A stretch of 64,000 bases of DNA, from positions 928,001-992,000 of the forward strand of contig CM000155.2 of the NCBI GenBank assembly GCA_000004695.1, written 5' to 3'. Made by a program: the position numbers and the translations under genes. This DNA comes from Dictyostelium discoideum. Lineage: Eukaryota. Shown one piece after another: positions 24,320 through 26,600 of this stretch. The notes below the pieces were generated by a model. It was not told the DNA's origin. It saw nothing but the letters and a program-made list of their open reading frames with translations, and ran no database searches. The stretch's first letter is position 1, and the number at the start of each line of letters is the position of its first letter.

Positions 24320-25039
24320 AAATTTACAAAATAATTTAAATGTTAATGTTTTAACTATATTAAGAAAATATCAAAAAATTTTCAATGAAATTGAAACGTT
24401 AATATCAAGTTGGGAATATTCAGAGAATAATTTATTTATAGTTTTTAAAAATATTTTATCATTTTTAGAAAGATATAATATATTAATAAATACATCCACA
24501 ATATCAACAATAAATTCAAATGAAATTGATTTAAATAATGACTCAAATGGTATAAGAATTGATTATTTTAGATTATTTAAAGATTCAAATAATAATAATA
24601 ATAATAATAATTCTATAGAATTTGAATTAAAATTAAAAATAATTGATAAATTAGAAGAATCAATGATATCATTAGATGAATATCAAAGAGAAATGAAAAA
24701 AGTTATAGAAAAATTTGATTCGTTTAAAATTGAAATTGACCAATATTGGGAAACAAATATTTTTTCTTTAAAATCATTATCAACAACGACAACAACAACA
24801 ATTGATAAAAATATATATATAAAAATAAATGAATTAAATCAAGGAAGTTTTTCAAATTCACCAATAACACAAATTGATCAATGGTTTCATTTTATTGTTA
24901 ATCAATTTAAATTAGAATTTCAAAGAAGAGATGGTTTATTAAAAAATTTAGAATATAATAAACCAATTAAACAATTAAACTCAATTTTTGAAAATTATGA
25001 AAAAAATACCAATTTTTCTTTAAATAATAGTATGTTTAG

Positions 25040-25073
<34 letters not shown>

Positions 25074-25085
25074 TTTCTTAACTAA
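24138..25085 (+). CDS. Asn-rich hypothetical protein, 315 aa
   Basis: Single ORF. Its 3' ~280 bp is duplicated in degenerate form at 26322..26600. Confidence 0.5.
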
Positions 25086-26164
25086 TTATTATTATTTTTT
25101 TTTTCTATTTTTAGTTAGGGAAATAATACCAAAAGTTAATGGAGTTATAAAAGAAATGTAAATAAAATAAAACAAAATAAAAAACTATTATAAATTTTAT
25201 ATCTTTTTTTTTATTTTTATTTTTATTTTTATTTTTTAATCAAATTATTAAATTAATTGGTTTTTTTTTTTTAAATTTAAATGGTGTTATTTCATTTTAT
25301 TACATGAATTAATACTATCCTTTATTTGGTGTTTCCTAATTGTGTTCCACTAACAAAAAACTAGGAGAAAGAAAAAGTAAAAATTGTCAAGAAAAAAAGA
25401 AAAAATAAAAAATAAAATAAGATAAATATTTATAAAAACAATTTTATATATATTTTTTTTTTAATTACGTTATTATATTTAATTTATTTTTTATTTTTAT
25501 TTATTTTTATTTTAAAAAGCAAGAAAGCTGGAATGCTGCAAAAAAAGCTTACCCTTTTTTTTAAACACCAATTTAACTTTTGGTGCTTTTTTGCAATTGT
25601 TGTGAAAATATCTTTTTAATAATACTAAAAATAATTTTTTTTTTTTATTTGATTGATCAATTGTGTTTGTTATAATTTTTTTTTTTCTAATTTTAAATCG
25701 TTTCCACTGAATACATAGTTTTTTTTTCTCATAATATATTTTTTTTTATTTTCTTTTATTTTCTAATTTTAAAATCCCCATGATACTTATTTTTTTTAAT
25801 TTTTTTTTTATTATTTTTCTATTTAAAACCTAAAATTTTTTTTTTCTTTAATTTTGTTTTCATTTTTAAAAATTATATTGGTTTTTATTTATTAGTTTTA
25901 AATTTTCAATTATAAGTATTATTTAATATTATAAATTTTTCTTTTTATATATTAATTATTTTTTTTTTTTTTCAATTTTAAAATTGAACAAATTTGTCCA
26001 ATTCCGTACTGTATCAATTCTAATCATTTTTAAAGCTCTGCTTGAACTCTCGGTTTCATTTTCACAATTAATATGGCACATCAACCCCCAATTAAACAGG
26101 CTTACGCCCACTACTCTGTACCACATTATCAGTATTTCAATGGCCATGAAAGAGTTTTTGTGTA

Positions 26165-26316
26165 ATTATTATGACGGATTAGATAAAAGAACATTGAAAC
26201 TGAAATTGAAATCCATCTTGATAATATACATATTTTGGATATCCTAAATATGTTTATTATCAAGATGGATTTCAATTTTCAATATTCTTTTATCTAATCC
26301 GTCATAATAATATTCA
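26165..26316. repeat. 152-nt near-perfect palindrome (two ~76-nt inverted arms, no spacer; centre GGATATCC at 26237..26244)
   Basis: The left arm attattatgacggattagataaaagaacattgaaactgaaattgaaatccatcttgataatatacatattttggat and the right arm atcctaaatatgtttattatcaagatggatttcaattttcaatattcttttatctaatccgtcataataat are reverse complements with a few mismatches and indels. Confidence 0.85.
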
Positions 26317-26321
26317 TTTAT

Positions 26322-26600
26322 TTCCCAAAATATAAAAATAAATGAATTAAATCAAGGAAGTTTTTCAAATTCATCATTAACACAAATTGATCAATGTTTT
26401 CATTTTATTATTAATTAATTTAAATTAGAATTTCAAAGAAGAGATAGTTATTAAAAATTTTGGAATATAATAAACCAATTAAACAATTAAACTCAATTTT
26501 TTGAAAATTATGAAAAGAATATCACTTTTTCTTTAAATATAATAGTATGTTTGGGAAATAAAAAAAAAAAAAATAAAAAAAATCATTTTCATAATTATTA
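26322..26600 (+). pseudogene. Degenerate duplicated fragment of the 3' end of the gene at 24138..25085
   Basis: About 90% nucleotide identity to 24805..25100, with indels. The duplicate contains in-frame stops (tta att aat TAA) and frameshifts relative to the parent gene. Confidence 0.75.

Follow-up and report, generated by a model that had tools for sequence, protein, structure and literature searches.

How does a long, almost perfect DNA palindrome come to stand between two convergent genes, directly before a decayed copy of the end of one of them? The question is raised by a 64,000-nt stretch of Dictyostelium discoideum AX4 chromosome 6 (the window; window coordinate + 928,000 gives the chr6 coordinate). 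In this stretch a 147-nt palindrome (26165-26311, chr6:954,165-954,311) lies between a gene for a 312-aa protein, hereafter the parent gene, and rpl3, which encodes ribosomal protein uL3. On balance, we suggest that the palindrome belongs to a lineage-specific composite insert of about 637 bp (25984-26620, chr6 about 953,984-954,620), which was made between the two convergent genes by fold-back or template-switch repair and which carries a candidate microRNA (miRNA)-type hairpin. The order of parts is gene 3′ end with its flank, 181-nt leader, 147-nt palindrome, 12-nt snap-back linker, the decayed copy of the gene end (copy B) and the rpl3 3′ flank. The parts of the insert, together with the source of the duplicated segment (copy A), are listed here.

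25984..26164, plus strand: leader, 181 nt, non-palindromic, specific to the AX4 lineage
26165..26240, plus strand: palindrome 5′ arm, 76 nt, continuous with the leader
26241..26311, plus strand: palindrome 3′ arm, 71 nt, inverted copy of the 5′ arm
26312..26326, plus strand: junction linker, the 12-nt snap-back and then CCC
26324..26620, plus strand: copy B, decayed ~300-nt partial copy of the parent gene 3′ end
24811..25122, plus strand: copy A, source segment, from the last part of exon 1 through the intron into the first bases of exon 2

The palindrome has no spacer. Its centre, GGAT/ATCC (GGATATCC), is an 8-nt palindrome in itself, and the two arms differ by 3 substitutions and one 5-nt indel, by which the 3′ arm is the shorter one. 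Folded as RNA, it has a minimum free energy (MFE) of -81.7 kcal/mol on the plus strand and -85.6 kcal/mol on the minus strand (z = -18.6 and -20.6), and none of the shuffled sequences is as stable (0/200). The GC content of the leader is 36% versus about 14% in the surroundings; the window itself ranges from 14 to 30% GC and contains poly-AAT and poly-A tracts. An earlier reading of this DNA, made from its letters and called here the sequence-only reading, had described a spacerless near-perfect palindrome of 152 nt at the junction, preceded by a GC-normal block. The palindrome, its lack of a spacer and its position at the junction hold, as does the block (25984-26164), while the length is corrected to 147 nt.

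The insert is non-coding. A six-frame search of the leader and 5′ arm against 5.8 billion protein clusters returned no homolog at E <= 0.01 (the 25-aa arm alone is below detection), and none of the local open reading frames is present in the protein collection. A coding origin was likewise rejected by translated-frame searches, with no homolog at E <= 0.01, for two further inserts described below, that of isolate L007 (six frames) and that of ddi-mir-1185 (minus-strand frames). In blastn within the window, neither the adjacent gene nor copy B matches the palindrome arms. Structured non-coding RNA in the leader was considered and rejected (z = +2.0 and -0.1), and so was a bacterial, viral or environmental origin, since exact-match scans of bacterial/archaeal, metagenome and viral collections found nothing.

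The junction between palindrome and copy B is the most informative part of the site. Read in inverted orientation, the linker ATTCATTTATTT (26312-26323) is identical to 26336-26347 (AAATAAATGAAT) in the initial part of copy B; exact inverted repeats of at least 12 nt occur in 2.7% of random 71-nt windows of this sequence. A spacerless inverted duplication abuts the duplication junction, and a short inverted templated insertion is found next to it. Such features, together with a duplication by re-entry behind the break, are the marks of fold-back or microhomology-mediated template switching. The sequence-only reading had proposed a hairpin- or foldback-mediated duplication, and it is supported by the 12-nt snap-back as well as by the fold-back and inverted rearrangements seen in parallel in other isolates.

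The duplicated segment itself is easily recognized. The two copies appear in blastn as a direct repeat (24817-25169 versus 26330-26670, E=1e-89), with clear homology between 24811-25122 and 26324-26620, where they are 92.6% identical over ungapped columns and differ by several indels. Copy B lies ~1.2 kb downstream of copy A, holds the last 219 nt of exon 1 and the 85-nt intron, and keeps only about 300 of about 1170 bp; the 5′ boundary of copy A falls in an (AT)n tract of the gene. Translated in the frame of the parent gene, copy B gives SQNIKINELNQGSFSNSSLTQIDQCFHFIIN*FKLEFQRRDSY*KFW...; stops and frameshifts interrupt it, and it is therefore a pseudogene fragment, as had been proposed. The surrounding features are the following.

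24138..25161, plus strand: parent gene, exon 1 24138-25029, intron 25030-25114 (GTATGT...TTTAG), exon 2 25115-25161
25162..25983, no strand: AT-rich spacer, largely the ancestral 3′ flank of the parent gene
26625..26735, minus strand: rpl3 3′ untranslated region (UTR) and flank, conserved in other isolates
26736..28310, minus strand, 5′ limit approximate: rpl3 (uL3) gene, convergent with the parent gene

Two further statements of the sequence-only reading have to be revised. The gene end that it placed at 25085 falls inside the 85-nt intron, and the coding sequence is 24138-25029 + 25115-25161. The 1.5-kb unit followed by a truncated second copy dissolves as well: 25162-25983 is largely ancestral flank, and 25984-26323 is an insert absent from other lineages. 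A simple tandem segmental duplication, with two head-to-tail copies and a single novel junction, was rejected, as copies A and B are separated by this 340-bp lineage-specific insert.

To place the insert in time we used the rpl3 locus of nine further genomes (L002-L010), none of the compared loci containing Ns. L004 and L005 are other D. discoideum isolates, L006 and L007 are assigned to ‘D. cf. discoideum’, L002 and L003 are D. citrinum, and the other three genomes are those of D. dimigraforme, D. firmibasis and D. purpureum. The parent gene, rpl3 and parts of the spacer are conserved across the compared genomes: 25162-25562 is also present in L004 and L005, and 25634-25946 in L007 (about 80%). 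The leader and palindrome (25984-26311) have no counterpart at the rpl3 locus of any of the nine, even at word size 7. The distance between the parent gene and rpl3 varies from about 370 bp to about 5 kb, and each lineage has its own rearrangements. Judged by these lineage-private rearrangements, the convergent parent gene-rpl3 intergenic region is a rearrangement hotspot.

In L004 and L005 the 3′ end of rpl3 is duplicated in inverted orientation, the arms being about 185 nt long and 90% identical, with 317-333 nt of loop between them (L004 7507-7689 / 8007-8193; L005 7667-7817 / 8151-8298). The duplication includes the last about 70 coding nt of rpl3 and its 3′ UTR, and an rpl3 read-through transcript of these isolates would fold to long double-stranded RNA containing rpl3 sequence. 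At its far junction in L004 it abuts a 27-31-nt piece that matches a boundary of the copy B type, CAAAATATAAAAATAAATGAATTAAAT. The D. citrinum genome L003 has an AT-rich hairpin in the rpl3-neighbour intergenic region (11671-11711 / 11752-11789, 41-nt arms, 90%), and in L006 and the other D. citrinum genome, L002, this interval contains no long hairpin.

The closest parallel is found in L007. This genome has direct duplicates of the rpl3 3′ end and an independent second partial copy of the parent gene 3′ end, whose 5′ boundary is unlike that of AX4 and which groups with L007's own copy A (8172-8348 and 10422-10622 for these duplicated segments). It also has an insert of 268 bp (12070-12337), in which an 85-nt leader with 36% GC is followed by a 176-nt near-spacerless palindrome (MFE -89.9 kcal/mol). 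The L007 insert is flanked on both sides by ~105-nt copies of the spacer with 83% identity (12352-12453, 11968-12067) and lies <=40 bp from the point equivalent to the AX4 insertion, directly beyond the shared spacer. The AX4 and L007 inserts have no sequence in common and yet are built alike, with leader and palindrome, in this order, between a first and a second target copy. For AX4 this second copy would be the gene 3′ end, taken up again from a point 1.17 kb behind the insertion and shortened afterwards.

We suggest the following sequence of events, which belongs to fold-back or microhomology-mediated template-switch repair (microhomology-mediated break-induced replication, MMBIR, or templated-insertion type) and not to transposition.

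Step 1: A broken or stalled DNA end in the spacer would copy about 257 nt, that is the leader and the 5′ arm, from a putative donor.

Step 2: At the GGAT/ATCC centre the synthesis would switch to its own complementary strand and about 75 nt would be copied backwards, giving the 3′ arm. Of the switch points, the centre is an 8-nt palindrome and the copy B boundary falls in the (AT)n tract.

Step 3: Near the re-entry point a 12-nt inverted false start would occur, which is preserved as the snap-back linker.

Step 4: Synthesis would resume on the chromosome 1.17 kb behind the break, inside the (AT)n tract of the gene, and the gene end would be re-copied as copy B. Truncation of copy B might have happened in the same event or later.

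As for the age, branch-wise counting gives 13 derived substitutions on copy B versus 2 on copy A of AX4, and at two further sites the copies A of AX4, L004 and L005 agree with each other and differ from copy B. In the neighbour-joining tree copy B is sister to the AX4/L004/L005 copy-A clade, after L007 branched off. The duplication thus appears to be old, at or before the AX4/L004/L005 split, with a topology that stands on 2-3 informative sites and a long branch.

What may such a hairpin do? A scan of the window for non-low-complexity hairpins found another palindrome, 30096-30240, 3.8 kb from that at 26165-26311, which is a known miRNA gene.

30097..30239, minus strand: ddi-mir-1185, exact matches to -5p and -3p, 143-nt near-perfect spacerless hairpin

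This miRNA was published at DDB0232433:958097-958239 with -0.73 kcal/mol/nt, a position that fixes the +928,000 offset of the window on chromosome 6; it is DrnB-dependent, was confirmed on northern blots and yields a pair of adjacent duplexes out of one long stem (Liao 2018, PMC6161686). At 37 C our calculation gives the ddi-mir-1185 hairpin an MFE of -82.4; at 22 C the value is -0.74 kcal/mol/nt, in agreement with the published one. The hairpin 26165-26311 gives -0.56/-0.58 kcal/mol/nt at 37 C and -0.71/-0.74 at 22 C. The miRNA hairpin with its GC-normal flanks (about 29823-30842) is missing from the orthologous region upstream of rpl3 in all of L002-L010, where the surroundings are conserved. 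According to BLAST and local alignment, the D. discoideum clade is thus polymorphic, by insertion or deletion, for a proven miRNA gene; these two methods were used in place of global alignment, by which the exact boundaries of the insert are unreliable in AT-rich DNA.

Two smaller repeats accompany ddi-mir-1185. A perfect 30-nt palindrome, GCCGCATAAAATTAATTAATTTTATGCGGC, is situated inside its insert at 30645-30674, about 400 nt before the hairpin when read on the strand of the miRNA. Upstream of rpl3 an AT-rich inverted repeat (29387-29522 / 29605-29744) has arms of about 140 nt with 83% identity, a loop of 82 nt and -0.24 kcal/mol/nt; unlike ddi-mir-1185, it is also present in L004 and L005 and is therefore older.

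Of the criteria applied to high-confidence Dictyostelium miRNAs, two concern the sequence, namely a folding energy below -0.2 kcal/mol/nt and at least 60% of duplex bases paired; others are 10 or more reads for each of 5p and 3p, a 2-nt 3′ overhang, a homogeneous 5′ end, DrnB dependence and developmental regulation (Liao 2018). The hairpin 26165-26311 lies below this energy, and each 21-nt stem window outside the loop is at least 71% paired on the plus strand and at least 76% on the minus strand, the position of any duplex being putative. By prediction its stem matches validated Dictyostelium pre-miRNAs in size and stability. The reported start of primary miRNA transcripts (pri-miRNAs) is a G that follows a T-rich tract and precedes the 5p arm by 116-281 nt (PMC6161686), and candidate motifs of this kind are present on both strands.

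25959..25986, plus strand: candidate start motif, T14 run with the first G at 25986, 179 nt upstream of the hairpin
about 26611-26647, minus strand: candidate start motif, A23 run 26625-26647, that is T23 and then CCCCAG, about 300 nt from the hairpin

A transcript could thus come from the plus-strand T14/G motif, from the minus-strand T23/G motif or from read-through of the highly expressed rpl3. The rpl3 stop codon is at 26736-26738, with the hairpin 425 nt downstream on the rpl3 strand and AATAAA in the rpl3 3′ flank at 26726-26731 (minus strand). Any transcript across the palindrome would form a stem of ~70 bp. Whole ‘miRNA modules’ have been gained and lost between D. discoideum and D. 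firmibasis, and long near-perfect hairpins are treated as young miRNAs (Edelbroek 2024, PMC11014262). The precursor idea is plausible because the validated ddi-mir-1185, of the same architecture, is only 3.8 kb away. We regard 26165-26311 as a plausible candidate for a young, unannotated hairpin-RNA locus, and to its being a ‘miRNA module’-type locus like ddi-mir-1185 we give somewhat less than even weight.

A broader and speculative reading, to which we lend limited credence, is that the rpl3-flanking intergenic regions are a nursery, where fold-back or template-switch repair repeatedly makes long hairpins from arbitrary non-coding DNA and these become DrnB substrates. ddi-mir-1185 would already be such a substrate and 26165-26311 its unannotated sibling. 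The basis is three unrelated palindromic modules in two lineages and the inverted duplication of the rpl3 3′ end in two isolates.

Several observations weigh against the repair origin as a single event and against the miRNA-type candidate. The search for further copies covered the 64-kb window and ten rpl3 loci totalling about 150 kb, and a low-copy mobile element may exist. The palindrome arms carry 3 substitutions per 71 nt versus about 6.8 expected for the age of copy B (Poisson p about 0.09), and the copy-B-type boundary of 27-31 nt survives in L004. As the arms are less diverged than expected, the history may have had two steps: the duplication would have come earlier, and the leader and palindrome would have been added at this boundary afterwards. 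The ddi-mir-1185 module has no flanking target duplication, and the modules may not all share one origin. Motifs of a T-run and G are common in the D. discoideum genome and have low specificity. Finally, the hairpin is in none of the published miRNA tables examined, among which the Avesson 2012 list was not covered, and the long non-coding RNA (lncRNA) catalogue has no entry between chr6:789,965 and 976,487, so none at the hairpin. The silence of the catalogue is uninformative because pri-mir-1185 is also missed there. A search of literature and supplements for 12-mers of the palindrome arms returned nothing relevant.

These last points lead to the rival that we take most seriously, though we still consider it doubtful: the scar has the same repair origin, but the hairpin is transcriptionally silent or irrelevant, a neutral and slowly decaying structural relic. 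Three mismatches and a 5-nt bulge between the arms with no sign of compensation, the unstructured leader, the absence from miRNA and lncRNA tables and the weak selective pressure on individual miRNAs (Edelbroek 2024, PMC11014262) are what such a relic would be expected to display. However, the hairpin lies on the strand of a ribosomal protein gene shortly past its stop codon, candidate start motifs exist on both strands, the lncRNA catalogue says little, and ddi-mir-1185, alike in build and lineage-specific status, is expressed and DrnB-dependent. Still less can be said for an RNA hairpin selected as a fail-safe terminator of the RNase III/Dicer type, which would protect the convergent gene against antisense transcripts running through from the highly expressed rpl3; we hold this for very improbable. 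Unrelated long inverted repeats do occur in the interval between rpl3 and its neighbour in AX4 (147 nt), L004/L005 (~185-nt arms), L007 (176 nt) and L003 (41-nt arms), but such a hairpin is missing from L006 and D. citrinum L002, the recurrence is accounted for just as well by a mutational hotspot, and no such mechanism is documented for Dictyostelium in the literature examined.

A further rival is a non-autonomous foldback element or miniature inverted-repeat transposable element (MITE), formed by the leader and palindrome; the copy of the gene end would then be a transduced fragment or a target duplication of unusual length. The sequence-only reading had proposed a MITE-like element with a long target duplication. 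Such an element is an improbable explanation in our estimation, even though the palindrome has terminal inverted symmetry, some Dictyostelium miRNAs derive from the thug-S DNA transposon and L007 carries an unrelated leader-plus-palindrome insert at a nearly identical spot within a ~105-nt direct repeat. The palindrome flanks (...TGTGTA/ATTATT...AATAAT/ATTCAT...) show no target-site duplication, neither the window nor the ten loci contain a second copy of the leader or palindrome, the three inserts have no sequence in common, and a 12-nt snap-back linker is not expected from transposition. To our knowledge, target duplications of 105 nt and 1.17 kb are far beyond the range of known transposases. 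The three mutually unrelated palindromes (26165, 30097 and L007 12252) all begin and end with ATTAT...ATAAT, namely ATTATTATGACGG, (G)TATTATCGTT and ATTATCAACTGG; this shared start speaks for a transposon, but it may be chance in AT-rich DNA, and no consistent target-site duplication accompanies it. An assembly artefact, by mis-join or by a collapsed or expanded repeat, has a negligible probability. It could appeal to the general difficulty of assembling AT-rich intergenic DNA, but the independent assembly GCA_054883475.1 (L001) shows the identical arrangement, with 6 mismatches and 29 gap positions relative to the window over 7.5 kb, and the mis-join that the sequence-only reading had considered is therefore excluded. 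In addition, the two copies differ by about 7% with indels, and the sole gap in the window, a 100-N run of the reference, is at 40759-40858.

The preferred repair origin has counterparts in fold-back inversions of yeast and human and in complex insertions of the MMBIR or fork stalling and template switching (FoSTeS) type, which contain templated, partly inverted filler. Common to these and to our locus are the spacerless inverted duplication, the short inverted patch from nearby, the re-entry duplication behind the break and the recurrence at one site; for Dictyostelium the pathway is a proposed one. In the model of Allen et al. 2004, young plant MIRNA genes reportedly arise by inverted duplication of their target gene. 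The present locus resembles them as a long, near-perfect and evolutionarily young foldback beside a duplicated gene fragment, but its arms come neither from the adjacent duplicated gene nor from an annotated protein, and the gene fragment is direct and not inverted. MITEs and foldback transposons, including the source of the thug-S-derived miRNAs, share with it a hairpin-forming inverted repeat in non-coding DNA; the locus differs from them by being single copy within the searched scope, by lacking a target-site duplication and by having no sequence in common with the other palindromes.

The nearest system is ddi-mir-1185 (Liao 2018, PMC6161686), likewise a near-perfect spacerless hairpin of about 145 nt and equal stability, intergenic and next to rpl3, in a GC-normal non-coding setting that is absent from the orthologous site of other isolates and species. 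The two have no sequence similarity; at about 1 kb the ddi-mir-1185 insert is the larger one, no duplicated gene fragment flanks it, and the northern and small-RNA support and the DrnB dependence belong to ddi-mir-1185, while 26165-26311 is known from sequence alone. With the ‘miRNA modules’ (Edelbroek 2024, PMC11014262) it shares the presence or absence of a whole hairpin locus in a syntenic intergenic region and a long stem with few mismatches. That comparison was made between species and proposed no mechanism, whereas here we deal with a polymorphism of the D. discoideum clade, with fold-back and target-duplication junctions.

The origin of the fast-turnover miRNA modules of dictyostelids has been flagged as open by the authors in the field (PMC11014262). 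The locus described here offers a concrete case with legible junctions, namely the leader, the palindrome made from the last 75 nt on the leader side, the snap-back patch and the duplicated target, with an independent parallel in L007 and a validated miRNA of the same build as its neighbour. If small RNAs map to the hairpin, this would be a dated and mechanistically interpretable de novo birth of a hairpin gene by DNA repair; otherwise, what has been documented is a hotspot of rearrangement in the space between two convergent genes, where a ribosomal protein gene ends. The existence of natural alleles that carry the insert and others that lack it opens the origin of Dictyostelium hairpin genes to direct tests. 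Should the nursery reading be true, it would explain how ‘miRNA modules’ have been gained in Dictyostelia, a gain so far without explanation, and the sequenced isolates would offer alleles from ‘before’ and ‘after’ the event.

The two genes that border the site need few remarks. The spliced uL3/RPL3 protein matches XP_629921.1 (D. discoideum AX4) exactly. The product length of the parent gene, 312 aa, is the same in the L001 gene call at this place, and the protein has a sub-threshold resemblance to the C1orf109-like family PF15011 (E=3.5e-4, 20.9 bits, below the 27-bit cut-off).

In the conserved spacer a motif CTAATTTTAAA(A)TCCCCA(A/T)GATAC is repeated at 25690-25790, as also in L007 at about 12480-12560. 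It resembles the Dictyostelium upstream sequence element (DUSE), an ncRNA promoter with a CCC core, but the spacing to any candidate start site does not fit. A DUSE promoter of the leader was rejected accordingly: TCCCCATGA at 25776-25784 is about 205 nt from the leader, not about 60 nt.

Other candidates in the window were also set aside. Rfam gave no gathering-level match, and at relaxed thresholds it gave only generic AT-rich hairpins far below the cut-off; its silence is uninformative here, as the genuine ddi-mir-1185 is missed too. Dictyostelium tRNA-linked retroelements (TREs) are retrotransposons that target tRNA genes, and a TRE context was rejected, with no tRNA genes in the window. 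A ‘palindrome’ at 38.3-38.6 kb is merely a pair of opposed A/T runs.

Two further observations concern more distant parts of the window. A strong GC skew (+0.5 to +0.9) at 44400-45800 stems from the proline-rich tandem repeats of a minus-strand gene (reverse complement of GGTAAATTTGGTTGTGGTGG units), beside a long ATT/AAT tract. Two lncRNAs of the Rosengarten et al. catalogue lie inside the window, at 48487-49368 (chr6:976487-977368, plus strand) and at 53358-53875 (chr6:981358-981875, plus strand).

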